A DNA stretch of 64,000 nt. It comes from an uncultured bacterium (GTDB taxonomy: Bacteria > Desulfobacterota_D > UBA1144). The DNA is taken from positions 66,180 through 130,179 of the forward strand of contig CAJWZP010000002.1 of assembly GCA_913050325.1 (NCBI GenBank). The letters run 5' to 3'. Below, in pieces: positions 4,261 to 38,953 of this stretch (its first letter is position 1; every line of letters begins with the position of its first letter). The notes beneath the pieces are model-generated. The model was not told the DNA's origin and did not search any database. It saw only the letters and a program-made list of their open reading frames with translations. The position numbers and the translations under genes are program-made.

Positions 4261-7200
4261 TTGCATAAAGAAAATATTCTTTTAACAAAACGTAGAAAAA
4301 GTTTTAGAGATAGACTAAAGACAGTTACTGATATTCCAGACTTGTTAAGTGTTCAAAAAGAATCATTTAACTTGCTTATACAGGCTGACGTCGATCCTGA
4401 TAAAAGAGAAAATATTGGCTTAGAAAAGGTGTTTAGGGCATCTTTTCCTATTGATGATTATCAGGGTAGGGCTTCTTTAAGTTATGTTTCATATCGTGTT
4501 GAGGAACCGAAATATAGTATAGCTGAGTGTAAACTCAAAGGTTACAATTATCAGTCAGCAATTCATGTAAAGTTTGACCTTTGCACCTGGGAATATGATT
4601 TAGATGAGAACGAAAATCCTATTCTCGAAACCAAAAGAGTTAAAGATATCAAACAACAAGAAGTTTTCTTTGGTGAAATTCCAATAATGACTCCAAATGG
4701 TGCTTTTGTAATTAATGGTACTGAGCGTGTTATTGTGAATCAACTTCATAGATCACCTGGTGTTTTTTTTGATGCTCAAAGAGGTTCTAAAGACCTAACA
4801 TCTTCTGGTAAAACTAATTTTACTGCTAGAATCGTTCCACAAGATGGCAGATGGCTAGATTTTGAATTTGATTCTAAAGATATTCTTTTTGTTAGGATTG
4901 ATAGAAAAAAGAAATTTCATTCGACACTTCTGATGTTAGCTTTAGGAGAAAATGCCAATACTATTTTAGATACCTTTTATAAAAAAGAATCAATTTCGTT
5001 TGATGGCAAGGGTTTTTCTAAAGATATTAATTTTGATTTATTACCATACCAAAGAGCCTCCCAAGATATAAGTGATAAAAATGGAAATCTTATTATAAGA
5101 GAGAATAGAAGATTTAATGAAAGAATTATAGAAAAAATTAACAGTTCTAAAATGAATAAATTGGAAGTACCAGATGAAGAACTACTTGGGTCTTATTTAG
5201 TTAAAAAAATAGATGGTACATTTGATCCTGAGGATGAAATTCAGTCCAATTTAATAGAAGAAATTACAGAAGAAACAATTGAATTAATTAGAGATAATAA
5301 TATTGATAAATTTGAAATATATTATGTTGATAATAACTTTTTTACCAACTCACTTGTTCTTACCATAAATGAAATGATATCTAAAACTAAAGTTTTAACA
5401 AAAGAACAAGCGGTTGCAGAAATTTATAAAAAATTTAGACCTACCGACCCTCCAACGCCAAAAGTTGCCATGACATTTTTTGATAATATGTTTTTTAGTG
5501 AAGATACCTATAGGTTATCAAGAGTTGGAAGAATGAAAATAAATTATAAGTTAAATCATGGAGTATCAAATTCAAAATTGTGTTTAGATCCTCGAGACAT
5601 TCTAGAGTCTTTTAAATATCTTTTACTCTTAAAATCAGGTAGGGGTGAAGTTGATGATATTGATCACTTAGGTAATAGACGAGTAAGAACAGTTGGAGAG
5701 TTAATTGAGGATAGATTTTTTGTAGGTCTTGAAAGACTTTCAAAAAGTATTAAAGAAAAATTAATGTATAACGTCGTTGATGAAATGTTCCCAGCCGATA
5801 TTGTAATACCAAAAAGTGTAACTTCTGTTGTTAAAGAGTTTTTTGCAACCGGTCAACTTTCCCAATTTATGGATCAAACAAATCCACTTTCTGAAATAAC
5901 ACATAAAAGAAGATTGAGTGCTTTAGGGCCCGGGGGTCTGACAAGAGAACGAGCGGGATTTGAAGTTAGAGATGTTCATTCATCTCATTATGGTCGTATC
6001 TGTCCTATTGAGACACCAGAGGGTCCGAATATTGGATTAATATCAAGTTTAAGCACATATTCTAAAATTAATGAACATGGATTCATTCTAACTCCGTATA
6101 GAGAGGTTAATGATTGTAAAGTAACCAATAAAATCAAATATCTTAATGCACTAGAAGAAGAGGATTATATAATAGCCCAAGCTAATGCGGAATTAAATGA
6201 AGATAATATCTTTTTAAATGATTTGGTTGATGCAAGAAATGCTGGTGAATTTGAAGTTGTTTCAAAAGAGGATGTTCAATTAATGGATGTTTCTCCAGCT
6301 CAATTAGTATCAGTGTCTTCATCTTTAATTCCATTTCTTGAGCATGACGATGCTAACAGAGCCTTGATGGGTTCAAATATGCAAAGGCAAGCTGTACCTT
6401 TGTTAAAATCTTCTGCTCCTTTAGTTGGAACTGGTTTTGAAAAAAATATTTCTCGCGACTCTGGAGTTAATGTTATTGCCAATAATGATGGAACTGTTGA
6501 TTATGTTGATTCTTCAAAAATTGTTATCTTAAAAGATGATAAGAATTCAAATGAAGTATCTGATATATATGACTTAATCAAATTTCAAAGATCAAATCAG
6601 AATACATGTTGGAATCAAAAACCGATAGTCAAAAAAGGCCAGAAAATTAAAAAAGGGGATATAATAGCTGATGGTCCGTCAACTGAATATGGTGAATTAG
6701 CACTTGGAAAAAATATAATGATAGCCTTTATGGCATGGGGTGGATATAATTTTGAGGATGCTATTTTAATAAGCGAGAGACTCTCAAAAGAGGATACTTT
6801 TACATCTGTCCATATTGAAGAATTTGAATGTATCTCCAGAGAAACAAAACTAGGTAAAGAGGAAATTACAAGAGACATTCCAAATGTTAATGAGGATAAC
6901 CTTTCTTTTCTTGACAAAGATGGAATAATCCAAATTGGAGCTGAGGTAAAACCAAATGACATATTGGTTGGAAAAATATCTCCAAAGGGTGAGACACAAT
7001 TATCTCCTGAGGAGAGATTGTTAAGAGCAATTTTTGGTGACAAAGCTGGTGATGTAAAAGATACTTCTTTAAGAGTTCCACCGGGAGTAAACGGAATAGT
7101 ATTAGATGTTAAAACACTTGTTTCAAGATTAGGTGATAAACAGGATCAGTCAAGATCAGGTTCTCCTGAAGTAATTGAATTAAAAGCTCAGCTAGAAAAA

Positions 7201-8421
7201 GAAGTTGATTATATTAAATCTGAAGCCCGTTCAAAATTAAAAAATATTTTTGTTGGAAAAACATCTATAAACGATGTTAGATCAAGTAGGAAAATTGTTC
7301 TTAAAAAAACTAAAGAAATTACTGAAGAGTCTTTTGCATTGGTTCCTTATGATAAAATTATTACAATTGAATTTAATGAAAGATCAAATTTTTTAAATGA
7401 GATTGAATCAATTCTAAAGATTTGTGATGAAAAAATTGAAAGTGTTTCTAGCAGAATCAATGTTGAAATAGATAAATTATCACAACCAGATGATTTACAG
7501 CCTGGTGTTTTAAAAGTTATTAAAGTATATGTCGCTGTTAAGAGAAAACACCAAGTTGGTGATAAAATGGCTGGTAGACATGGAAATAAAGGAGTTGTTT
7601 CAAGGGTCCTTCCTGTTGAAGATATGCCTTATCTTCCAGATGGTACGCCTGTTGATATGGTTTTAAATCCTTTGGGAGTTCCATCCAGAATGAATGTAGG
7701 ACAAATATTAGAGACACACTTAGGTTTAGCGGCTAAGTCATTAGGTAATCAGATAAATCATGAATTAAATGATAAGTTTCCAAATACGGTAAAATTAAGA
7801 GAACTGATAAATGGTTTTTATAAAAATGATATTGATTACATAAATAATGTAAAAAAATTAAATGATGAAGATTTGATAGATTTAGCCAAACGACTTTCAG
7901 AAGGAGTACCTGTTGAGACTCCTATTTTTGAGGGTGTAAAAGAATCCGATATTCGTTCTTTGTTGGATGAAAATCATTTTCCACAAGATGGTAAGCTCAC
8001 ATTGTTTAATGGTGAAACTGGTGAGCCTTTTGATCAAAGAGTTACCGTTGGTATTATGTATATGATTAAATTACATCATTTGGTCGAAGAAAAGATTCAT
8101 GCCAGAGCTATTGGACCTTACTCACTTGTCACACAGCAACCTCTTGGTGGTAAGTCTCATTTTGGTGGTCAAAGATTAGGGGAAATGGAAGTTTGGGCGC
8201 TTGAAGCTTACGGCGCAGCTAATACTCTTCAAGAATTTTTGACTGTGAAATCGGATGATGTAATTGGTAGAACACGACTTTTTGATTCTATTGTAAAAAA
8301 TAAATTGAAGTTTGAGCCTGGAATTCCTGAATCTTTTAATGTTTTAACTAACGAATTGAAATCTTTGGGGCTAAACATTGAAATGATGGATAAAGGAGAT
8401 GAAGTTGATGCTGAAAGCTAA
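4261..8421 (+). CDS. rpoB: DNA-directed RNA polymerase subunit beta (TTG start)
   Basis: 1386 aa with rpoB hallmarks (GEIPIMTPNGAFVINGTERVIVNQLHRSPGVFFD; RRLSALGPGGLTRERAGFEVRDVHSSHYGRICPIETPEGPNIGLI; GEMEVWALEAYGAA). AGGTG SD 5 nt before TTG. Confidence 0.97.
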   Translation: MHKENILLTKRRKSFRDRLKTVTDIPDLLSVQKESFNLLIQADVDPDKRENIGLEKVFRASFPIDDYQGRASLSYVSYRVEEPKYSIAECKLKGYNYQSAIHVKFDLCTWEYDLDENENPILETKRVKDIKQQEVFFGEIPIMTPNGAFVINGTERVIVNQLHRSPGVFFDAQRGSKDLTSSGKTNFTARIVPQDGRWLDFEFDSKDILFVRIDRKKKFHSTLLMLALGENANTILDTFYKKESISFDGKGFSKDINFDLLPYQRASQDISDKNGNLIIRENRRFNERIIEKINSSKMNKLEVPDEELLGSYLVKKIDGTFDPEDEIQSNLIEEITEETIELIRDNNIDKFEIYYVDNNFFTNSLVLTINEMISKTKVLTKEQAVAEIYKKFRPTDPPTPKVAMTFFDNMFFSEDTYRLSRVGRMKINYKLNHGVSNSKLCLDPRDILESFKYLLLLKSGRGEVDDIDHLGNRRVRTVGELIEDRFFVGLERLSKSIKEKLMYNVVDEMFPADIVIPKSVTSVVKEFFATGQLSQFMDQTNPLSEITHKRRLSALGPGGLTRERAGFEVRDVHSSHYGRICPIETPEGPNIGLISSLSTYSKINEHGFILTPYREVNDCKVTNKIKYLNALEEEDYIIAQANAELNEDNIFLNDLVDARNAGEFEVVSKEDVQLMDVSPAQLVSVSSSLIPFLEHDDANRALMGSNMQRQAVPLLKSSAPLVGTGFEKNISRDSGVNVIANNDGTVDYVDSSKIVILKDDKNSNEVSDIYDLIKFQRSNQNTCWNQKPIVKKGQKIKKGDIIADGPSTEYGELALGKNIMIAFMAWGGYNFEDAILISERLSKEDTFTSVHIEEFECISRETKLGKEEITRDIPNVNEDNLSFLDKDGIIQIGAEVKPNDILVGKISPKGETQLSPEERLLRAIFGDKAGDVKDTSLRVPPGVNGIVLDVKTLVSRLGDKQDQSRSGSPEVIELKAQLEKEVDYIKSEARSKLKNIFVGKTSINDVRSSRKIVLKKTKEITEESFALVPYDKIITIEFNERSNFLNEIESILKICDEKIESVSSRINVEIDKLSQPDDLQPGVLKVIKVYVAVKRKHQVGDKMAGRHGNKGVVSRVLPVEDMPYLPDGTPVDMVLNPLGVPSRMNVGQILETHLGLAAKSLGNQINHELNDKFPNTVKLRELINGFYKNDIDYINNVKKLNDEDLIDLAKRLSEGVPVETPIFEGVKESDIRSLLDENHFPQDGKLTLFNGETGEPFDQRVTVGIMYMIKLHHLVEEKIHARAIGPYSLVTQQPLGGKSHFGGQRLGEMEVWALEAYGAANTLQEFLTVKSDDVIGRTRLFDSIVKNKLKFEPGIPESFNVLTNELKSLGLNIEMMDKGDEVDAES

Positions 8422-8439
8422 TATTTTGGAGGAAAGTTT

Positions 8440-11400
8440 ATGTTAGATATGGGAGTGCTTTTTGATAAGCCAAAAAATCCATCAGATTTTAAATCTATAA
8501 AAATTAGTATTGCGTCACCGGAAGAAATAAAAGAATGGTCTTATGGTGAAATCAAAAAACCAGAGACAATCAATTATAGAACATTTAAGCCTGAAAAATA
8601 CGGCCTTTTTTGTGCAAAAATATTTGGGCCAGTTAAGGATTTTGAGTGTTTATGTGGAAAATATAAAAGATTAAAACATAGAAATCATACTTGTGAAAAG
8701 TGCGGCGTTGAAGTTATTTCAAGTAAAGTTAGAAGATTCAGAATGGGACACATTGAATTATGCTCACCTGTAGCTCATATTTGGTTTCTAAAAAGTGTTC
8801 CTAGCAGAATTGGTGCTTTACTAGACATGACATTAAAAGATTTGGAAAAAGTTTTATATTTTGAATCATATGTAATTACAGATCCTGGTGATACTGGTCT
8901 TAAAGTTGGGCAAGTGATTTCAGAAGACGGATATAGAAAATTAATAGATGATAACTTTTTCTTACTAGTTGGTATGGGAGCTGAAACTATTCGTACCATG
9001 TTGGAAGAGATAGACCTAGAGGCTTTATCTGTTGAATTAAAACAAGATTTAAGATCAACATCTTCACCTTTGAAAAAAGTTAAGTTATCAAAGAGACTTA
9101 GAATAGTTGAAGCTTTTAGAAATTCAGGAAATAAGCCAGAATGGATGATTTTAAAAAGATTGCCTGTATTACCACCAGACTTAAGACCTTTAGTACCATT
9201 AGATGGTGGGAGATTTGCAACTTCAGACTTAAATGATCTTTATAGAAGAGTTATTAATAGAAATAATAGACTTAAAAAACTTATGGAATTAGGCGCACCT
9301 GATATAATTGTTAGAAATGAGAAAAGAATGCTTCAAGAATCGGTTGATGCATTATTTGAGAATGGTAGAAGAGGTAGACCAGTTCTTGGCCATAACCACA
9401 GACCTCTGAAAAGTTTAAGTGATATAATAAAGGGTAAACAAGGTAGGTTTAGACAAAATCTCTTGGGAAAGAGGGTCGATTATTCCGGTAGGTCCGTAAT
9501 TGTTGTTGGACCCCAATTAAAACTACATCAATGTGGTTTGCCTAAAAAAATGGCTTTAGAACTTTTTAGACCATTTATTTATCAAAAATTAGAATTGTGG
9601 GGCCATGCTGCTACAATAAAAATTGCTAAAAATTTAGTTGAGCAACAAGCTCCAATAGTATGGGATGCTTTAGACGATGTTATTAAAGAACACCCAGTTA
9701 TGTTGAACAGAGCGCCTACATTACATAGGTTAAGTGTTCAAGCTTTCGAGCCTGTTCTTGTCGAAGATAAAGCAATTCAACTTCACCCATTAGTTTGCCC
9801 AGCTTTTAATGCTGATTTTGATGGCGATCAAATGGCTGTTCATGTTCCTTTATCGGTTGAAGCACAAACAGAATGTAGGACATTAATAATGTCAACAAAC
9901 AATATTTTATCTCCTGCACATGGTAAACCAATAATTTTACCATCTCAGGATATTGTTCTAGGAATTTACTACATAAGTAGAGAGGTTCCCGGAGTCAAAG
10001 GTGAAGGTAAATCTTTTTCAAGTATCGATGAGTTAAGAAGTGCGTTTGATCTTGGAAATGTTCATATTCATGCAAAAATCAAAGTTGATATAAATGGAAC
10101 TGTTGAAAATACGACAGTTGGACGTGCTTTAATTTTTGAGGTTATGCCCAAAGAGGTACCTTTCAATCTTATTAATAAGTTGATGACAAAAAAAGCTATT
10201 GAAGAATTAATAGATTCAACTTTTAGAATCTCAGGTGGTAAGAGTACAGTTTTACTAGCAGATAGATTGAGGACTCTTGGATTTCAACATTCTACTACAT
10301 CTGGCATTTCAGTATCAATCGCTGATATGACTATTCCAGAAGAAAAAAACAACTTAATTAAAGTAGCGGAAGAAGAAGTTAATAAAATAAAAGATCAATA
10401 TTTGCAGGGCTTGATAACAGAGGGTGAAAGGTATAATAAGGTAATCGATGTATGGGCCAGAACAGGTGATGATATCGCAACATATCTTATGGATAGTATT
10501 GCATCATCAGATCTTTCTGATAAAGATTCTAAAGATGAAAAATCCCCGAGTAAAAATCCTATTTTTATGATGGTTGAATCTGGAGCAAGAGGTAGTCAAT
10601 CTCAAGTGAGACAATTAGCCGGAATGAGAGGCCTGATGGCAAAACCATCTGGAGAAATTATAGAAACTCCAATAACTTCAAATTTTCGTGAGGGCTTAAG
10701 TGTGCTTCAATACTTTATTTCAACTCATGGTGCAAGGAAAGGCTTGGCAGACACTGCTTTAAAAACAGCGAATGCAGGATATTTAACCAGAAGATTAGTT
10801 GATGTTGCACAAGATGTTATGATTTCTGAATATGATTGTGGTACAAAAGAAGGTATTGAAATTAGTCAATTAGTAGAAGGCGGGGAAGTAGTATCTAGTG
10901 TTGGAACCAGAGCTTTAGGTAGAGTAGTGGCCGAAGATGTTAATGATCCATTAACTGGTGAGAAAATTTTGTCTAGAAATCAAGAAGTTACAGAGTCAAT
11001 TGCTAAAGTTATTGATGATCTTCCGGGTTCTCAAAGAATTAAAATAAGGTCCTGTTTAACATGTGAGTCGGAAACAGGTGTTTGTGCTCTTTGCTATGGT
11101 AGAAATCTTGCTAGTGGAGAACTTGTAAACATTGGTGAGGCTGTTGGAATCATAGCTGCTCAATCAATTGGTGAACCTGGTACTCAGTTAACAATGAGAA
11201 CTTTCCATATTGGTGGGGTTGCTAAAGTTGAGCAATCTAGACATGATGCAAAAAATGACGGAAAAATTAAATTTGTAGATCTTAATTATGTTAAATCTGG
11301 TGACTCGAATATTTGTACAAGCAAAACCGCTGAATTAGTAGTTGAGGATTTGAATACATCACTGGAATTAGAGCGTTATCCACTTACAATTGGAGCTAAA

Positions 11401-12519
11401 ATTTATTTTAATGATAATGATAAAATTAAAAAAGGTGATGTTATTGCAGAATGGGATCCAACAATTTTCCCATTCGTTGCTGAAGAATCTGGTCACGTTG
11501 AATATAAAGATTTAGAAGCAAATATATCCTATAAAGAAACTGTTGATCCTTATACAGGATTGTCAAATAAAGAAGTTGTCCAATTTAAAGATCAGAAATT
11601 AAATCCAGCCCTTATATTAGTAACTGAAAAAGGTGATAGATATGAATACCCTATGCCTAGAGGTGCAGAAATTAGAAAGGATAATGGAGAAAAAGTTAAA
11701 CCTGGAGAATTTATTGCTTCATTGCCTCAAACTAAAGCACAGACAAAAGATATAACTGGTGGATTACCTCGAGTTGCGGAATTATTTGAAGCAAGGCCTC
11801 CAAAAGATCCTGCAATTGTTTCTGAAATTGAAGGAGTAGTCTCTTTTGGTAAAGATATAAAATCCAAAAAAAGAATTATTGTTACACCTGACATTGGGGA
11901 TGCTAAAGAATATTTAGTTCCTAAATCAAAACACATTCTAGTTAGAGAAGGTGAAAATATTACAGCAGGTGATCAAATTGTTGATGGGGCACCAGATCCT
12001 CATGACATTCTTAAAATTAAAGGTGAGAAAGAACTTTCTAAATATATAGTTGATGAAATCCAAGATGTTTATCGACTTCAAGGTGTTAGAATTAATGATA
12101 AACACATAGAAATAGTAACAAGACAAATGTTACGTAGGGTAAAAATTACAGATAGTGGTGATACAACATTGCTAATTGGTGAAGCTGTAGAAAAGAGCGA
12201 GTTCATTAGAACAAATCAACAAGTTGTTTCCGAAGGTGGTCAGCCAGCTAAAGCTGAACCATTATTATTAGGTATAACTCGAGCTTCCTTAAGTACAAAA
12301 AGTTGGTTGTCAGCTGCTTCTTTCCAAGAAACAACAAAAGTCTTAACTGATGCTTCTTGTGAAGGAAAGATTGACGACCTTGCAGGATTAAAGGAAAATG
12401 TAATAATGGGACGATTAATTCCTGCTGGTACAGGACTTCCACTATACTCTGACACTGATGTTGAGATTAATGCACCTGAAATCGAGGTACCGGAAACTAT
12501 TTCTACAGATAATGTTTAA
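8440..12519 (+). CDS. rpoC: DNA-directed RNA polymerase subunit beta'
   Basis: 1359 aa with an N-terminal zinc finger ([23 protein letters not shown]) and the catalytic [16 protein letters not shown] motif. Confidence 0.97.
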
Positions 12520-31111: not shown

Positions 31112-31276
31112 TTATTTTCTATAAATATATGACAGATTCACGATTGGTGCTAAAAACCAAACTGATGTTGAAGTCCATAGAATCCAACTTTTAGGCAAAC
31201 CATGACTAATAAAAAATCCAGCACACATTATTAATAACAATATATTCATTGAAATTGCTAATTTTTTTATGTTCAT
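31112..31276 (-). CDS. small hypothetical membrane protein (54 aa, two predicted TM helices); absent from the ORF track
   Basis: Hand translation of the minus strand gives MNIKKLAISMNILLLIMCAGFFISHGLPKSWILWTSTSVWFLAPIVNLSYIYRK*. A strong SD AAGGAGA (complement of 31284-31290) lies 7 nt upstream of the ATG at 31276. Stop TAA at 31112-31114. Confidence 0.45.
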   Translation of the reverse strand: MNIKKLAISMNILLLIMCAGFFISHGLPKSWILWTSTSVWFLAPIVNLSYIYRK

Positions 31277-31376
31277 TGTTGTTCTCCTTATTAAATACTA
31301 TTTACTAAATAATTTTATTTCTTAATATGTAAATATAGCTAATTTACAGTGAAATATATTCTTATGGAATAAAGTA

Positions 31377-31404
31377 TTGTCATTTTAACTATTTAGGGTA
31401 AATT
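31377..31404 (+). promoter_or_regulatory. candidate sigma70-type promoter for the proteorhodopsin gene
   Basis: -35 TTGTCA at 31377-31382, a 16-nt spacer, and -10 TAAATT at 31399-31404, about 30 nt before the ATG. SD AGGGAGG at 31421-31427. Confidence 0.3.
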
Positions 31405-31435
31405 CATCTTTAACTTAATTAGGGAGGTCTTTTAC

Positions 31436-32194
31436 ATGTCAAAGTATGTAAATTACTTTTTACTTTCCGCAATTATTGCTTGCATGCCGCTAGTATCATT
31501 CGCTGGAACAAATTTAGCCCCTAATGATCCTGTTGGAATTTCTTTCTGGATTATTTCAGTCGCAATGGTAGCCGCTACTGCTTTCTTCTTCCTAGAGTCT
31601 CTAAGAGTTCAAGGTAAGTTTAGAACATCATTAGTAGTTGGTGGTCTTATTTGTTTGGTTGCAGGCGTACACTATTTCTATATGAGAGAAGTGTGGGCTT
31701 CTACAGGTTCATCTCCAACTGTATTCAGATACGTTGACTGGATTGTAACCGTTCCACTTCAAATGGTTGAATTCTATCTCATATTAGCTGCTGTTACAGC
31801 TGTATCACTTGGTGTCTTCTGGAGACTTCTAATCGGTACTGTTGTTATGGTTGTTGCAGGTTATTTAGGCGAAGCTGGCTTCATTGATACAACAATTGGT
31901 TTTGTTGTAGGAATGGGTGGTTGGGCTTATATCCTGTATGAGATCTTCTCAGGCGAAGCAAGTGCTAGTGCTTCTAAAGCTGCACCTGCTGTTCAATCCG
32001 CATTTAATACAATGAAATGGATTGTAACCATTGGCTGGGCTATCTATCCTTTAGGTTATTTCTTAGGATATATGACCGGTGGTGGTGCTGATGCAGATAC
32101 TCTAAATATAGTTTATAACGTTGCAGATTTTATAAATAAAATTGGTTTTTGTTTAGCAATATGGGCTGCTGCTACAACACAAGCTGATGCTTAA
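31436..32194 (+). CDS. proteorhodopsin (light-driven proton pump), blue-tuned variant
   Basis: 252 aa with a signal peptide plus 7 TM helices. Has the PR-specific His (GVHYFYMR), proton acceptor Asp and donor Glu in RYVDWIVTVPLQMVEFYLIL, and the Schiff-base Lys in ADFINKIGF. The spectral-tuning position is Gln (PLQMVEF). Confidence 0.93.
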   Translation: MSKYVNYFLLSAIIACMPLVSFAGTNLAPNDPVGISFWIISVAMVAATAFFFLESLRVQGKFRTSLVVGGLICLVAGVHYFYMREVWASTGSSPTVFRYVDWIVTVPLQMVEFYLILAAVTAVSLGVFWRLLIGTVVMVVAGYLGEAGFIDTTIGFVVGMGGWAYILYEIFSGEASASASKAAPAVQSAFNTMKWIVTIGWAIYPLGYFLGYMTGGGADADTLNIVYNVADFINKIGFCLAIWAAATTQADA

Positions 32195-32204
32195 AAAAAT
32201 TAAA

Positions 32205-32235
32205 GGGTTTGTATCAATGATATAAACCCTTTTTT
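32205..32235 (+). terminator. rho-independent terminator after the proteorhodopsin gene
   Basis: 11-bp stem GGGTTTGTATC / GATATAAACCC (one G-U pair) with loop AAT, followed by TTTTTT at 32230-32235. Confidence 0.7.
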
Positions 32236-32252
32236 ACCTTATAATTTTAAAA

Positions 32253-33740
32253 ATGAAAATTAATAAAACTTTAGTAGTAGGTGGAGGTTTTGGGGGTATT
32301 GCTGCAGCTTTAAGAATGAAAGCTTTGGGTCATGATGTAACAATCATTGATAGACTATCAAAGTTAGGTGGAAGAGCTCAGGTCATAGACAGGAATGGAT
32401 ATAAATATGATACAGGCCCAACAGTTATAACTGCACCTTTTTTATTTAAAGAATTATTTAATCTTTTTGATGAAAATATTGAAGATTATTTAGATTTTAA
32501 ACCTTTAGAACCATGGTATAGATTTTACTTTCATGATGGTTCAAGCTTCGATTATTCATCATCAATCAATAAAACAAAAGAGGAAATATCTAAATATTCC
32601 AAGAGCGATTCTGAGGGATATGATCGTCTATTAGAAGAATCTAAAAAAATATTTGAGATTGGATTTACAAAATTATCGGACCAGCCATTTTTATCCTTTT
32701 GGACAATGATTAAGCAAGTTCCATCACTATTAAAGTTAAAAAGTTATTTAAGCGTATATGATATCGTTTCAAAATATATTAAAAATTCAAAAATTAGATC
32801 TGCTTTTTCAATCCATCCTTTACTAGTAGGTGGTAATCCATATACAACAACATCAATTTACTCATTGATTCATTATTTAGAAAGAAAATGGGGAGTATTT
32901 TTTTGTATGGGAGGAACGGGAAAATTAGTTGAGGAACTAACAAATTTATTAAATAGAGTAGGTGTAAGAATTTGTTTGAATGAGGATATCAAATCAGTAG
33001 AACATAAAAATTCTATTGCTTACAAAGCAATAACATCGAATGGAAAAGAATATTTTTTTGATAATATAATTTTCAATGGCGATCCTCCCACTTTCTACTC
33101 TGAAATCCTAAAACCGAAAAAAAGAAATCTTATAAACCCGATATTACCTGATAGCCTAATGACTTATTCCATGGGTTTATTTGTTTTGTTTTTTGGTACA
33201 AATAATCAATATAAGGATATAGCTCATCATACTATTTGGTTATCGAAAAGATTTAAGGGTCTTTTAAATGATATTTTTAAAGAAAAAGACTTGCCAGATG
33301 ATTTTTCACTTTATCTTCATAGGCCAACTGCAACTGATTCAACTTTTGCGCCAGAAGGTTGTGATAGCTATTATGTTTTATGCCCTGTACCAAACTTAAG
33401 ATCAAGCATAAATTGGAAAGTAGAAGGAGATAATTTAAAAAATAATATTATTAATGAATTAGAAAGAACCATAATGCCAAATTTAAAATCAAACATTAAA
33501 GATTTATCTTATATGACTCCTATAGATTTTAAAAATGATTATAGATCAATGCATGGAGCAGGCTTTTCAATAGCACCTATATTTTATCAATCAGCCTGGT
33601 TTAGATATCATAATCAAGATTCTAAAATTAAAAATATTTATTTTTCTGCAGCTGGCGCTCACCCTGGAGCTGGTATTCCAGGTGTTTTATCATCTGCAAA
33701 AGTAGTAGAAAATATTATAAGTAGAAATAAAAATGCTTAA
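32253..33740 (+). CDS. crtI: phytoene desaturase
   Basis: 495 aa with an N-terminal FAD-binding site (VVGGGFGGIAAALRMKALGHDVTIID) and the CrtI-family C-terminus. Confidence 0.9.
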   Translation: MKINKTLVVGGGFGGIAAALRMKALGHDVTIIDRLSKLGGRAQVIDRNGYKYDTGPTVITAPFLFKELFNLFDENIEDYLDFKPLEPWYRFYFHDGSSFDYSSSINKTKEEISKYSKSDSEGYDRLLEESKKIFEIGFTKLSDQPFLSFWTMIKQVPSLLKLKSYLSVYDIVSKYIKNSKIRSAFSIHPLLVGGNPYTTTSIYSLIHYLERKWGVFFCMGGTGKLVEELTNLLNRVGVRICLNEDIKSVEHKNSIAYKAITSNGKEYFFDNIIFNGDPPTFYSEILKPKKRNLINPILPDSLMTYSMGLFVLFFGTNNQYKDIAHHTIWLSKRFKGLLNDIFKEKDLPDDFSLYLHRPTATDSTFAPEGCDSYYVLCPVPNLRSSINWKVEGDNLKNNIINELERTIMPNLKSNIKDLSYMTPIDFKNDYRSMHGAGFSIAPIFYQSAWFRYHNQDSKIKNIYFSAAGAHPGAGIPGVLSSAKVVENIISRNKNA

Positions 33741-34602
33741 TGAAAAAATTGAAAAATTTAAAAATAATGGAAAAAGTTTTTATTGGGCTAGTAGGATTTT
33801 AAATAGAAATAAAAACGATAAAATATATAATTTGTATTTTATTTTAAGAGAATTAGATGATATCGCTGATAATCAAAATAATGAAAATGAATTTTTTAAA
33901 AAACTTTATGATTTTTTTGATATGAGTAAAAATAATGAATTGCCTTACAGATTAGAAAAACATAAAGATTTTTTTCTATATATTAAGAATGATTCATTAA
34001 TGAATAAGAATTTTAAAGATTTTATCACTGGTTTAATATTTGATCAGAAGGATAATGTAATAATTGACTCCCAGGATGAATTGTTAAATTATTGTTATAG
34101 AGTTGCAGGAACAATAGGTGTCATGATGTGTCCAATTTTAAATGTAAAAAATGAGCATGCAACTATACCTGCTACTAATCTCGGTATAGCAATGCAATTG
34201 ACCAATATTGCTAGAGATGTCTATGAAGATGCATTAAGTAACAGAAGATATTTACCTTCATCTTGGACAAACGGCATTGAACCTAAATTAATAATTGGTA
34301 AGTCTGATTGTATTGAATCAGTTGCCTATTTGTCAGTTAAAGATGGAATAAAAAAAACAATAGAATTAGCAGAAAAATATTATGAAGATGCAAAAAAAGG
34401 ATATTCCTATTTACCACTTAGGTCTAGATTGTGTATCGCAGTTGCAGCAAATATTTATAGAGAGATTGGGAAAAAAATTAAAAAAGAAAATTATAATTGG
34501 TCATCTTATAGGCACTTTGTAAAAAATTATGAAAAGTTGTACATAACTCTTAAGTCTATAATTTCTGAATTTTATTTAATTTTTAAAGAGAAAATACAAT
34601 GA
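33733..34602 (+). CDS. crtB: phytoene synthase
   Basis: 289 aa, squalene/phytoene synthase family (YWASRIL...LRELDDIAD; Asp-rich motifs). Overlaps crtI by 8 nt. Confidence 0.88.
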   Translation: MLNEKIEKFKNNGKSFYWASRILNRNKNDKIYNLYFILRELDDIADNQNNENEFFKKLYDFFDMSKNNELPYRLEKHKDFFLYIKNDSLMNKNFKDFITGLIFDQKDNVIIDSQDELLNYCYRVAGTIGVMMCPILNVKNEHATIPATNLGIAMQLTNIARDVYEDALSNRRYLPSSWTNGIEPKLIIGKSDCIESVAYLSVKDGIKKTIELAEKYYEDAKKGYSYLPLRSRLCIAVAANIYREIGKKIKKENYNWSSYRHFVKNYEKLYITLKSIISEFYLIFKEKIQ

Positions 34603-35702
34603 GTTCAAGTAAAACAATTTCTATCATTGGGGGAGGTTGTGCAGGATATAGTCTTTTAAATAAATTAAAAAATGTAAGTAATATTGAAATTGATTTTTTC
34701 ATCGGAAAGAATCAAGGAATAAATAATTTCTGGGGATATTGGGAATATGATAAAGATATTCCAGATAATATTTTGAGTGGCAAATGGAATAAGTGGAAAA
34801 TTTCAACTCAAGATGGTGAAAAATTTTTTGAATCCTCTAGTCATCCATATTGTGTAACTACAAGACATAATTGGATTTCATATTGTAAGCAGAATACTAA
34901 TAAAAAAAATATAAGAATATTAAAAGAGGATATAATGGAAATTAATAATAAAATTTATAATAAAAATAATGATGAAATTATTTCTGATTTTATTTTTGAT
35001 TCTAGATATACAAATAAATCTAAAAATATTTTCTTACAGCATTTTAAAGGTTTTTTAATTAAAACTGAAACTGATTGTTTTGATGATGAAGTCTTAACTT
35101 TAATGGATTTCAGATGTGATCAATCTAAAGGTATGCAGTTTGTATATGTTTTACCATTTACAAAAAAAATTGCATTGATTGAGCCAACGATTTATTCGTA
35201 CAACATTGAAGACGAAATCTATTATAAAAAAACTTTAGAATCATATCTTTATGATATATATAAAATAAAAAAATATAATATTATTAAGACTGAAAAAGGA
35301 TCAATTCCATTGGAACACAATAATATTAAAAAAGGACCTTATTTTAATATTGGTATCAATGGTAATGTTAATCGAAAATCATCTGGATATACATTCACTT
35401 TTATTCAAAAACAATCAATTTTAATAAAAAATTTCTTCTTGAATATAAGTAATGATTTGTCATTAAAAGTGCAGTCAAATTTTTTTAATTTTTTAGATGA
35501 AATTTTTCTAGATGTTATTAAAAGAAAACCCAGCATTGGACCTTTAATTTTTTATTCTTTCGGAAAGTCTTTTAATGGTAATGAGATGTCAGATTTTATG
35601 AATAACAGAATTAATTTTATTCCTTTTATGAAAATGTTATTTAACTTACCATTTAAGGAATTTATTAAATCTTTCATCAGGTGTTTATTTAATTATGGAT
35701 AG
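34599..35702 (+). CDS. crtY: lycopene beta-cyclase (CrtY type)
   Basis: 367 aa with an N-terminal dinucleotide-binding site (SIIGGGCAGYSL) and CrtY-family architecture. Overlaps crtB by 4 nt. Confidence 0.8.
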   Translation: MSSSKTISIIGGGCAGYSLLNKLKNVSNIEIDFFIGKNQGINNFWGYWEYDKDIPDNILSGKWNKWKISTQDGEKFFESSSHPYCVTTRHNWISYCKQNTNKKNIRILKEDIMEINNKIYNKNNDEIISDFIFDSRYTNKSKNIFLQHFKGFLIKTETDCFDDEVLTLMDFRCDQSKGMQFVYVLPFTKKIALIEPTIYSYNIEDEIYYKKTLESYLYDIYKIKKYNIIKTEKGSIPLEHNNIKKGPYFNIGINGNVNRKSSGYTFTFIQKQSILIKNFFLNISNDLSLKVQSNFFNFLDEIFLDVIKRKPSIGPLIFYSFGKSFNGNEMSDFMNNRINFIPFMKMLFNLPFKEFIKSFIRCLFNYG

Positions 35703-36492
35703 CATCACATTATATTCTCTGATACTTATAATTCTAGTAGGCCTTCCACATGGAGCCCTTGATGGTGCAGTTAGTTTGTGTCTTGAAATAAATAATTCGT
35801 TAAGAAATATAATTATTTTTATAAGTGTTTATATCTTAATAGCTTTTATAGTAGTTATTTTATGGTTGAACTTTTCCGAACTGGCTTTGATATTTTTTCT
35901 AATAATTAGCATCATGCATTTTGGTATTGGTGATTTAGAATGGGAAAGTGGTTTTTCAAAATATATTTTGGGATTCTTTATTGGCGGGTTGGTAGTTGTT
36001 GGTACCTCTCTATTAAATAGAGATGATGTTAATAATATCTTCTTATACTTATCTGAACGTACAGACATGGTTTGGTATTTTATTGAATACTCTTCATATT
36101 TATGGATTCTATCGGTACCATATTTCATCAATAAAATTGATAAATTTTCTACTCAATTTTTAATAAAGATTTTTTTTATTTTTATATTTGTAGTTTTTTT
36201 ACCACCCTTATTAGCATTTTCTTTCTATTTTTGCTTTATACATACTATTAATCATTTTGGAAGAATAGTTCCTCAACTTAAAAACAAAATGACAAATAAG
36301 AAGATTTTTTATACTTTTTTACTTTTTACTCTATCTAGTTGGCTAATAGGATTTATTGTATATGAATTATTTAAGGATTCTTTTGATTTTGTTGAACTTA
36401 CGTATAAGATTCTTTTTATCGGATTGGCAGCTTTAACGGTACCACATATGATTTTAATTGATTTTTATTTTAGGCCCCTTAAGAAAGTATGA
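35695..36492 (+). CDS. blh: beta-carotene 15,15'-dioxygenase (Brp/Blh family), the retinal-forming enzyme
   Basis: 265 aa polytopic membrane protein with the Blh signature N-terminus (LILIILVGLPHGALDG) and conserved His residues. Immediately downstream of crtY with an 8-nt overlap. Confidence 0.82.
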   Translation: MDSITLYSLILIILVGLPHGALDGAVSLCLEINNSLRNIIIFISVYILIAFIVVILWLNFSELALIFFLIISIMHFGIGDLEWESGFSKYILGFFIGGLVVVGTSLLNRDDVNNIFLYLSERTDMVWYFIEYSSYLWILSVPYFINKIDKFSTQFLIKIFFIFIFVVFLPPLLAFSFYFCFIHTINHFGRIVPQLKNKMTNKKIFYTFLLFTLSSWLIGFIVYELFKDSFDFVELTYKILFIGLAALTVPHMILIDFYFRPLKKV

Positions 36493-36764
36493 TTATAAAA
36501 ATTTTGGAAATTAGTGAGACAAGCTATAATGTTATTGTAGAGTCAAGTTCAAAAACAGAACATAATGTATCATTGGAATCATCTTATTATAAAAAACTTA
36601 CATTAGAAAAAATATCTAAAAAAAAATTAATTGAATTAAGTTTTGAATTTCTTTTAGCAAGAGAATCAAATTCGTCGATTCTCAGTAAATTTGATCTCAG
36701 TTTAATTAGTAATTATTTCCCTGAGTTTGAAAATGAAATTATAATTAAAATAAAGGAGATTTAA
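36489..36764 (+). CDS. hypothetical small protein (91 aa), translationally coupled to blh
   Basis: Its ATG overlaps the blh stop (ATGA). MIIKILEISETSYNVIVESSSKTEHNVSLESSYYKKLTLEKISKKKLIELSFEFLLARESNSSILSKFDLSLISNYFPEFENEI.... No family recognised. Confidence 0.5.
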   Translation: MIIKILEISETSYNVIVESSSKTEHNVSLESSYYKKLTLEKISKKKLIELSFEFLLARESNSSILSKFDLSLISNYFPEFENEIIIKIKEI

Positions 36765-36765
36765 G

Positions 36766-38046
36766 TTGAGAGTTTTAGTAGTTGGATCAGGTGGACGTGA
36801 ACATGCAATTTGTTGGGGTATAGCTAAAAGTAATAAAGTAAAAAAAATATATTGTGCACCTGGAAATGCTGGTATTAGTGAATTTGCTGAAAATGTAGAA
36901 ATTCCTGCTGATAACATTAATAAACTTTTAGAATTTGCATTAAAAGAAAAAATAGATTTTACAATTGTTGGACCTGAACAACCTTTATCGCTTGGTATTG
37001 TCGATCTGTTCAGAGATAATAAGCTTTTGATTTTTGGTCCTAGTAAGTTTGCATCTCAATTAGAGTCTAGTAAAGAATTTTCGAAATTATTTATGGAACG
37101 AAATAATATTCCGACTGCATCTTTTAAATCTTTTACATCATATGATGAAGCAAAAGCATATTTAAATGAATCAAATTTACCAATTGTAATCAAAGCAGAT
37201 GGTTTAGCATCTGGAAAGGGTGTTAAGGTTTGTATGGAAATGGAGGAAGCAAATTCTTTTTTAAAAGAAATAATGTTAGACAAAATTTTTTCTAAATCTG
37301 GAGAAAAAGTTGTTATTGAAAGTTTTCTAGAAGGAGAGGAGGCATCTTTCTTTGTATTTTCAGATGGAGAAAAAATACTTTGTTTAGACTCTTCACAAGA
37401 TCATAAAAGATTACTTGATGATGATAAAGGACCTAACACGGGTGGTATGGGTGCATATTCTCCGGCACCAATCATAGATGAAGAAACTAAAGAAAAAATA
37501 TTAAATGAAATTATTAATCCAGTTTTTGAGGCATTTAAAAAAGAAAATTTTGAATATACTGGAATTCTATATGTTGGTTTAATGATTAATAATAAAAAGC
37601 CTAGTGTTGTAGAATTTAATTGTAGATTTGGCGATCCTGAAACTCAACCTTTACTTTTTAGGATTGAATCAGATATCTTTGATCTGTTCTACCAGACAGC
37701 CTTAAAACAAATTGATCAGTACCAATTGATTTGGAAAAGAAAAACAGCTATTTCAGTTGTTTTAGCCTCATTAGGATATCCTATGAATCCAGAAACTGGA
37801 GGAGAGATTAAAGAATTAGAATCTTTTAAAAATACTGATGATGAATTTGTATTTCATGCTGGTACTAAATTTTTAGATAATAAAGTTGTTATTTCAGGTG
37901 GAAGAGTTTTAAATATAACTGCATTAGGACACGATCTTGAAGATGCTATTAATAAAGTTTATGACTCTATAAATAAAGTAGAATTAAAAAACTTTCATTA
38001 CAGAAATGATATAGGTAAAAAGGGCCTTGTGAAAAAAACCAAATAG
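36766..38046 (+). CDS. purD: phosphoribosylamine--glycine ligase (TTG start)
   Basis: 426 aa; MRVLVVGSGGREHAICW is the PurD N-terminus, and it has an ATP-grasp domain. AAGGAG SD 8 nt upstream of the TTG. Confidence 0.92.
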   Translation: MRVLVVGSGGREHAICWGIAKSNKVKKIYCAPGNAGISEFAENVEIPADNINKLLEFALKEKIDFTIVGPEQPLSLGIVDLFRDNKLLIFGPSKFASQLESSKEFSKLFMERNNIPTASFKSFTSYDEAKAYLNESNLPIVIKADGLASGKGVKVCMEMEEANSFLKEIMLDKIFSKSGEKVVIESFLEGEEASFFVFSDGEKILCLDSSQDHKRLLDDDKGPNTGGMGAYSPAPIIDEETKEKILNEIINPVFEAFKKENFEYTGILYVGLMINNKKPSVVEFNCRFGDPETQPLLFRIESDIFDLFYQTALKQIDQYQLIWKRKTAISVVLASLGYPMNPETGGEIKELESFKNTDDEFVFHAGTKFLDNKVVISGGRVLNITALGHDLEDAINKVYDSINKVELKNFHYRNDIGKKGLVKKTK

Positions 38047-38047
38047 C

Positions 38048-38076
38048 TTGACATAGATTAAAAGTGTGGCATATTT
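38048..38076 (+). promoter_or_regulatory. candidate promoter of the str operon
   Basis: Perfect -35 TTGACA at 38048-38053, a 17-nt spacer, then ATATTT/TATTTC at 38071-38077. About 25 nt upstream of the rpsL SD GAGG. Confidence 0.45.
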
Positions 38077-38099
38077 CATGCATTAAATATGAGGTTATA

Positions 38100-38953
<854 letters not shown>

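Follow-up and report, generated by a model that had tools for sequence, protein, structure and literature searches.

We analyzed a stretch of 64,000 nucleotides from an uncultured bacterium (GTDB lineage Bacteria; Desulfobacterota_D; UBA1144; assembly GCA_913050325.1, contig CAJWZP010000002.1, positions 66,180 to 130,179), referred to here as the window, with a focus on ORF91, an open reading frame (ORF) with an ATG start that encodes a protein of 91 amino acids (aa) at positions 36489..36764 of the forward strand, downstream of genes for proteorhodopsin (PR) and the enzymes that supply its retinal. Our results establish ORF91 as a genuine gene under purifying selection and as a member of a widespread, unnamed protein family that is linked to neither retinal or rhodopsin genes nor purD outside the clade of the window. 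An earlier note on this sequence, prepared without database searches, had suggested that ORF91 might assist the retinal/PR module as an accessory factor; the analysis does not support a role specific to retinal and identifies ORF91 as a conserved hypothetical gene that is co-transcribed with the retinal operon. The reading that we favor, and that we regard as probable, is that ORF91 is a stand-alone module with a general, retinal-independent role in binding a conserved partner, and that it is a passenger in the operon in which it is found here.

Re-calling of ORFs on the window yielded the same coordinates and translation for ORF91 as those given previously. The length of the ORF is by itself no proof of a gene, because ORFs of 70-100 aa occur nearby, antisense to neighboring genes, in window DNA with a guanine plus cytosine (GC) content of 25-30%; ORF91 might then be open by chance, or might serve purD as a leader or spacer without coding for a protein. 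That alternative is refuted by homology and selection data, and we assign it a practically negligible probability. A word-indexed search recovered 107 homologs, nearly all of 85-102 aa, and HMMER, run exhaustively against 1.84 billion representatives of clusters at 50% identity, detected 963 clusters with E ≤ 1e-3, of which 130 had E ≤ 1e-10. In pattern scans, the family was located at no fewer than 591 loci in GTDB species genomes and at no fewer than 597 loci in Joint Genome Institute (JGI) metagenomes, so that a spurious frame would have to account for hundreds of homologs of the same length across phyla, sharing an invariant motif. The frame, whose lack of conservation the earlier note had named as evidence against its own proposal, is kept in homologs, and the ratio of nonsynonymous to synonymous substitution rates (dN/dS) lies well under 1, at ~0.29 between the window and locus L001 (with dS near saturation) and ~0.09 between loci L001 and L093. 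Confident fold predictions for two divergent members add to the evidence against a spurious ORF.

The gene neighborhoods of the family were analyzed at the best 80 of at least 591 genome loci and the best 80 of at least 597 metagenome loci, these being the most query-similar, with flanks of ±6 kb that were searched by tblastn with the PR, CrtI, CrtB, CrtY, Blh, PurD, GlmS and RpsL proteins of the window. None of the 157 loci outside the clade of the window carries blh, a rhodopsin gene, crtI, crtB, crtY or purD within these flanks, and tblastn matches to PR, crt, blh and purD were confined to the clade’s own loci (L001, L081-L087 and L093). Many of the hosts are anaerobes from dark or anoxic sediment or soil, such as Desulfobacterales, Syntrophobacteria and Olavius symbionts, and no donor cassette in which a family member follows blh was found among the most query-similar loci. 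The co-occurrence with blh and PR across genomes that an accessory factor of the retinal/PR module was expected to display is hence absent outside the clade. The opposite pattern, in which homologs would accompany purD and never blh, is not observed either, since neither gene is present at the 157 loci. As a fallback, the earlier note had described ORF91 as a conserved hypothetical gene upstream of purD; the first half of this description stands, and the adjacency to purD turns out to be clade-specific, sister lineages having purD without the ORF.

The arrangement PR-crtIBY-blh-ORF91-purD is found only in the marine, AT-rich clade of the window, where it is present in three sublineages: the population of the window itself (L081-L087), L001/L093, with an ORF91 homolog that is 63% identical, and L171-L173, with one that is ~73% identical. 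The tight junctions between blh, ORF91 and purD are retained in all three. In L001/L093 the homolog starts with TTG, 1 nt past the blh TAA, and contains the AAGGAG sequence that precedes purD, the TTG of which lies 4 nt past the stop of the homolog. Two apparently truncated homologs of 54 and 72 aa (P0068 and P0027), considered as possible pseudogenes, are artefacts of a scaffold N-gap and of an error-rich long-read contig. The gap, at 7860-7968 of L171, runs across the blh/ORF junction of L171-L173 and generates the “54-aa” call, and L174 represents this locus in a sequence rich in errors, with many frameshifts; both loci otherwise display the PR-crt-blh-ORF-purD arrangement.

The next-closest PurD proteins (65% identical) belong to sister lineages represented by abundant Tara metagenome-assembled genomes (MAGs) labelled “Thermodesulfobacteriota bacterium”, which share with the window a synteny that runs glmU-glmS-...-purD-rpsL-rpsG-fusA-tuf-S10 operon. 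One sister lineage (L167/L168) has nothing in the 21 bp gap between glmS and purD, and another (L169/L170) has there a 126-aa membrane ORF unrelated to ORF91; a sensitive hidden Markov model (HMM) scan of all six frames detected no family member in the L167-L170 loci. These two arrangements led us to reject the idea of ORF91 as an ancestral gene upstream of purD. The extra block of the clade at this junction (31112-36764) comprises a 54-aa membrane ORF, PR, crtI, crtB, crtY, blh and ORF91. Because the sister lineages have either 21 bp or an unrelated ORF at this position, the glmS|purD junction behaves as a slot with variable content that has taken up the PR/retinal cassette.

The same relationships lend some weight to the alternative that ORF91 is a clade-specific accessory of the retinal/PR module, which arrived or was fixed with the cassette, while the family would have a general role elsewhere. 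Such an accessory might pass beta-carotene or retinal between the membrane-bound Blh and PR, or might stabilize or regulate Blh. ORF91 is always the gene after blh in the three sublineages, down to 63% identity and with the start/stop coupling kept, and in the two sister lineages whose glmS|purD slot is devoid of PR-crtIBY-blh, the slot is devoid of the ORF as well; no Tara-sourced homolog attributable to these abundant lineages was present among the 107 homologs of the word-indexed search. ORF91 also evolves at a rate like that of blh and crtY, and a dozen or so of the invariant residues are large and hydrophobic and could form the lining of a pocket for lipids. Nevertheless, the shared presence and absence of ORF91 and the PR cassette is a single evolutionary event, set against 157 other family loci away from blh, rhodopsin and crt genes, many of them in dark-habitat anaerobes, and against the lack of a donor cassette among the most query-similar loci. 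To our knowledge, moreover, functional PR and retinal pathways reconstituted in E. coli need no ORF91-like protein. On balance, a clade-specific accessory function seems unlikely. We hold as quite unlikely the specific proposal that ORF91 was recruited as a soluble carotenoid/retinal handler, co-acquired with the PR-crtIBY-blh cassette and delivering beta-carotene to Blh or retinal to apo-proteorhodopsin; if true, this would make ORF91 the first accessory protein dedicated to a bacterial retinal pathway and would provide the family with its first function.

The distribution of the family is patchy and taxonomically scattered, with hosts in at least 591 GTDB species that are spread over approximately 18 groups at the level of phyla, among them Pseudomonadota (many Methylophilaceae), Acidobacteriota, Bacteroidota, Thermodesulfobacteriota, Actinomycetota, Chloroflexota, Spirochaetota, Verrucomicrobiota, Planctomycetota, Nitrospirota, Nitrospinota, Gemmatimonadota, Sumerlaeota, Hydrogenedentota and Neomarinimicrobiota, together with Chlorobi-type bacteria, Binatia and the Candidate Phyla Radiation (CPR) groups Uhrbacteria and WWE3. 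Cultured hosts exist among Methylotenera-type methylotrophs, and Aminobacter sp. MSH1, through its plasmid pBAM2, is another. The possibility of a phage or plasmid cargo gene was rejected, with no family match in phage records or in PHROGs and one distant match, on the single Aminobacter plasmid, in plasmid records. In two loci (L178, 3955-4212; L179, 1136-1393) the gene for a family member of 85 aa immediately precedes an rpl3-rpl4-rpl23-rpl2-rps19 cluster; judging by the sizes of L3 (314 aa) and L4 (258 aa), and by additional genes interspersed in the cluster, these loci look archaeal or DPANN-like, and the family may extend beyond Bacteria.

Family members are single-domain proteins of ~85-100 aa, with which ORF91 is in agreement at 91 aa, and protein identities of 40-60% are retained across phyla. 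Longer homologs (P0112-P0220) were considered as domain fusions and judged to be gene-call artefacts, consisting of start-codon overcalls or pieces of unrelated neighbors (FeS_assembly_P, PTPS, FAD_oxidored). Conservation is markedly uneven along the protein. In alignments A1, A2 and A4 the N-terminal half, which corresponds to a three-stranded sheet, is variable, with a weak pattern of I3, V15, V17, T23, H25 and V27, and the C-terminal half hardly varies between Actinomycetota, Pseudomonadota and CPR bacteria (SFEFLLxRE..SIL..F.L..I..YFPEFE). ORF91 carries all the invariant or near-invariant residues (V15, H25, V27, L47, S51, F52, E53, F54, L55, L56, R58, E59, S63, I64, L65, F68, L70, I73, Y76, F77, P78 and E79), with column frequencies of 0.89-1.00 across 85 sequences, and the conserved C-terminal stretch runs on to E81 (Y76-F-P-E79-F-E81). 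The nearly invariant core, L..xSFEFLLxRE(S/P)xxSILxxFxLxxIxxYFPEFE, was delimited on alignments A1/A2, per-column conservation and secondary structure; it maps to codons 47-81 of ORF91 (36627..36731, forward strand) and extends from helix 2 through a loop, strand 4 and helix 3 to the turn that leads into helix 4.

The earlier note had also drawn attention to a repeated E-S/T-S-Y-x-V pattern in ORF91. The E-[ST]-S-Y part does occur twice, at residues 10-13 and 30-33, and the full pattern does not; because few alignment columns of the family vary more than these positions (entropy ~3 bits) and the pattern is missing from the 63%-identical sister protein, it is best regarded as lineage noise. The description of ORF91 as soluble, on the other hand, is consistent with the globular model predicted by AlphaFold, which has a predicted local distance difference test (pLDDT) score of 89.4 and a b-b-b-a-a-b-a-a topology. 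The same order of elements is predicted for P0095, a family member 36% identical to ORF91 (pLDDT 84.2), and no significant structural neighbors were detected for either of the two models; the fold is thus confidently predicted and without recognizable relative. The mildly acidic median isoelectric point (pI) of the family, at 5.7, argues against a basic nucleic-acid binder.

To characterize the genes that accompany the family, neighbor ORF calling and blastp clustering were applied to 80 and then to 157 loci, and Pfam was searched with 40 selected and 150 dereplicated neighbors. With this crude gene calling and clustering, the immediate (-1/+1) neighbors fall into 182 distinct clusters, and none of the 177 Pfam families among the dereplicated neighbors occurs more than three times. 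Genes that overlap or abut a family member encode Macro, AcpS, GNAT, M1 peptidase, DUF4015 and periplasmic binding proteins, an APH-type kinase, pterin-4a-carbinolamine dehydratase, YggS, Fpg and AccB; AcpS lies directly upstream of the family member in Acidobacteriota. The family is therefore without a conserved neighbor gene, and a type II toxin-antitoxin system or other two-gene small-protein module was rejected for want of a conserved adjacent partner and of a PADLOC match. Adjacencies to methyltransferases, HtpG, cyclophilin, AcpS and AccB are lineage-limited or weak.

The recurrent proximity of class I S-adenosylmethionine (SAM)-dependent methyltransferases opens the possibility that family members act as partner, substrate or regulatory subunit of such a methyltransferase, or of a small-molecule or cofactor-handling enzyme, the genes having since drifted apart in most genomes. 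A methyltransferase of this class is encoded within two genes and on the same strand at 17 of the 157 loci, where no fewer than six unrelated subfamilies are represented and the genes are arranged in several orders, and such genes are more frequent near the family member (16/461) than farther away in the same loci (8/663), with an odds ratio of 2.9 and a p-value of 0.012 that is uncorrected for the kinship of the loci and for the number of families tested. On the Aminobacter plasmid pBAM2, 112 bp separate an annotated class I SAM-dependent methyltransferase from a distant family member downstream of it, and one methyltransferase subfamily adjoins a family member, together with a Nitro_FeMo-Co (NifX-like) domain, in five arrangements. 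Class I enzymes are, however, among the commonest bacterial genes, none is nearby in ~89% of loci, including the window, and those that are do not form one orthologous group, with 25-33% identity between groups. We consider this alternative distinctly unlikely and treat the enrichment only as a lead.

The subfamily just mentioned encodes methyltransferases of ~220 aa that are 51-81% identical to each other and that lie beside a family member in at least five gene orders (L045, L058, L059, L072, L124, L130, L141, L150, L154, L160, L161 and L164). They are usually accompanied by the NifX-like Nitro_FeMo-Co domain, as a separate gene or as a fusion, and other frequent companions at these loci are a TauE fragment, YggS, or a flavoenzyme resembling old yellow enzyme (OYE)/2,4-dienoyl-CoA reductase.

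Two genes of the protein-folding machinery likewise recur, and an extremely unlikely alternative would make the family a co-factor of Hsp90/HtpG or of a peptidyl-prolyl isomerase. At 12 Methylophilaceae-type loci htpG is a divergent neighbor, and in one Sumerlaeia MAG it directly follows the family member, so that the association amounts to one lineage and one locus; a cyclophilin gene is found one or two genes upstream in six loci of three phyla (Bacteroidales, Gammaproteobacteria and Uhrbacteria), with unrelated genes between it and the family member. Neither gene is near ORF91 in the window, nor near the family member in the large majority of loci.

A function tied to purD, purine synthesis or translation was also considered, in which ORF91 would be a coupling cistron that brings ribosomes to the purD TTG, or a ribosome-associated factor, kept upstream of purD and of str/S10 operons. 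The ribosome-binding site of purD does lie in the last codons of ORF91, with the TTG 1-4 nt past the stop, in all sublineages, and the family members of L178/L179 precede a ribosomal protein cluster. Yet the sister lineages have purD at the same position without the ORF, purD is absent from 157 of 157 other family loci, and a mere coupling cistron would not hold the protein identity that the family retains across phyla, which makes this alternative very unlikely.

The favored reading combines these lines of evidence. ORF91 would be a small, cytoplasmic, single-domain alpha/beta protein with a general role unrelated to retinal, binding a widely conserved partner, either a protein or a small ligand, by way of its invariant helix-loop-helix face. 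We propose a general partner-binding module because one half of the protein is extremely conserved across phyla, the distribution is patchy and no partner gene is fixed. In the window, ORF91 would be an operon passenger in a compact, streamlined genome, placed in the same variable glmS|purD slot as the PR/retinal cassette. The weakest step of this reading is the binding of a conserved partner, which we infer from the conservation pattern.

Several observations weigh against the favored reading. The invariant residues could be purely structural. Between the window and L001, the dN of ORF91 (0.38) is close to those of blh (0.41) and crtY (0.36), unlike that of purD (0.18). In the glmS|purD slot, the one place that allows presence to be compared with absence, ORF91 and the PR cassette are both present in three sublineages and both absent in two sister lineages, and a passenger has to be explained by treating this co-presence as one coincident event. 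The weakly recurrent neighbors (class I SAM methyltransferases, HtpG and cyclophilin), finally, hint at a role more specific than the general one proposed here.

The gene context of ORF91 in the window indicates how it is likely to be expressed. Directly upstream, blh (35695..36492, forward strand, as are all genes of the string) encodes a beta-carotene 15,15'-dioxygenase (Pfam BCD, E 4e-43), preceded by crtI, crtB and crtY (32253..35702), which overlap each other and blh by 4-8 nt; these three were identified from ORF coordinates and from Pfam searches on contig L081, identical to the window, where they match Amino_oxidase, SQS_PSY and Lycopene_cycl, respectively. The ATG of ORF91 overlaps the blh stop (TGA, 36490-36492) by 4 nt in an ATGA sequence (36489..36492), already remarked upon in the earlier note, which couples the translation of the two genes. 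ORF91 stops with TAA at 36762-36764, and purD (36766..38046), which encodes a phosphoribosylamine-glycine ligase (Pfam GARS_N/A/C, E 2e-77), starts with a TTG 1 nt beyond. It had been stated that ORF91 ends 1 nt before the Shine-Dalgarno (SD) sequence of purD; it is the start codon that lies at this distance, and the SD (AAGGAG, 36753..36758) is located inside ORF91, within its last codons and 7 nt upstream of the TTG, an arrangement common to L001/L093 and L171.

The genes crtI-crtB-crtY-blh-ORF91-purD form one gap-free, co-oriented string, and a scan of the window sequence found no terminator-like sites between crtI and purD, in agreement with the earlier assignment of ORF91 to the transcription unit of crtIBY-blh. 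Promoter-like sites are no commoner than in shuffled sequence, and no internal promoter is claimed. Since ORF91 is coupled to blh at its start and holds the ribosome-binding site of purD at its end, it would be produced from the read-through transcript that carries the retinal enzymes and PurD. At the head of the inserted cassette is the PR gene (31436..32194; Pfam Bac_rhodopsin, E 2e-44), which is separated from crtI by a strong, intrinsic-terminator-like hairpin detected by sequence scan (32202..32241, forward strand), with a 14-bp stem and a T run, directly 3' of the PR stop and ~15 nt upstream of the crtI ATG. This hairpin probably sets a lower level of read-through for crtIBY-blh-ORF91-purD than for PR. 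L001 and L171 also have a hairpin between PR and crtI, the stem of which differs in sequence; this points to the conservation of an attenuating terminator that would combine high PR expression with low crt and blh expression.

Other features of the locus were recorded in passing. The PR gene (31450-32200) has a GC content of 38-42%, versus 20-30% for the crt, blh and ORF91 genes and their flanks, and it is by far the slowest-evolving gene of the block, with a dN of 0.05 versus 0.36-0.41. The cluster at 31436-36492 contains crtI, crtB, crtY and blh, and neither crtE, for geranylgeranyl diphosphate (GGPP) synthase, nor idi adjoins it. Divergent from PR, the 54-aa hydrophobic membrane ORF (31112-31276, reverse strand) has no Pfam match; every sublineage of the clade has kept it, and the sister lineages lack it. 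Its identity is 96% in L001 and only 65% in L093, though the ORF91 homologs of L001 and L093 are ~97% identical to each other, which hints at recombination within the clade. Downstream, a TTGACA-16-CATATT promoter-like site with a TG extension (38048-38075) lies between purD and rpsL; mechanical calling opens rpsL with a GTG at 38064 (137 aa, 38064-38477), and identical contigs call a 125-aa S12 from an ATG at 38100. At the other end of the window, a five-tRNA cluster (784-1389) is followed by a long series of ORFs on one strand, among which are the two largest of the window (1386 and 1359 aa, 4261-12519), presumably rpoB and rpoC by size and position. The PR cassette sits within a neighborhood of ribosomal protein and RNA polymerase genes.

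These findings leave the general picture of rhodopsin phototrophy little affected, as the data argue against an extension of the minimal set of PR and retinal genes by a new conserved component, and annotators should not tag ORF91 as a retinal-pathway protein. The interest of ORF91 lies instead in its family, which, at ~90 aa, ~18 phyla and about a thousand clusters at 50% identity, is a candidate for a new domain-of-unknown-function entry and for structural and functional work. The locus itself illustrates the packing of a streamlined genome, in which the essential purD is preceded by an acquired PR/retinal cassette and by a small unrelated gene that contains the purD ribosome-binding site.

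Comparison with known families and systems agrees with the earlier view that ORF91 could not be matched to a known family. Searches of Pfam, NCBIfam, PADLOC and PHROGs with ORF91 and 33 members yielded no match at threshold, a profile search of PDB sequences was empty, databases list the family only as “hypothetical protein”, and the literature provided no match for the family motif or for DUF2660. The latter (PF10859, from Rickettsia) is alone among Pfam families in matching over three members (5 of 33, with a best E of 7e-4); its profile length of 91 is the same as that of ORF91, and residues 22-68 of ORF91 are collinear with profile positions 23-67. All scores are nonetheless sub-threshold, ORF91 reaching 14.5 bits (E 0.054) against a gathering threshold of 25 bits, and DUF2660 is itself uncharacterized, so it conveys no functional information on ORF91. 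Pfam PBS_linker_poly (PF00427), with 14.7 bits for ORF91 (E 0.033) against a threshold of 28.7 and one matching member of 33, was rejected as a chance match.

Among known gene systems, the closest parallel is with the PR photosystem gene clusters (PR, crtE, crtI, crtB, crtY, idi and blh). The titles and abstracts of the retrieved papers on these clusters list no such gene and describe no small gene after blh. ORF91 lies inside a cluster of this kind, co-oriented and coupled with blh, but it is not homologous to any of the seven genes. At the level of topology, we take ORF91 to be a look-alike of the PqqD-like recognition elements of ribosomally synthesized and post-translationally modified peptides (RiPPs), which are presumably of similar size and which combine an N-terminal three-stranded antiparallel sheet with the helices that follow it.

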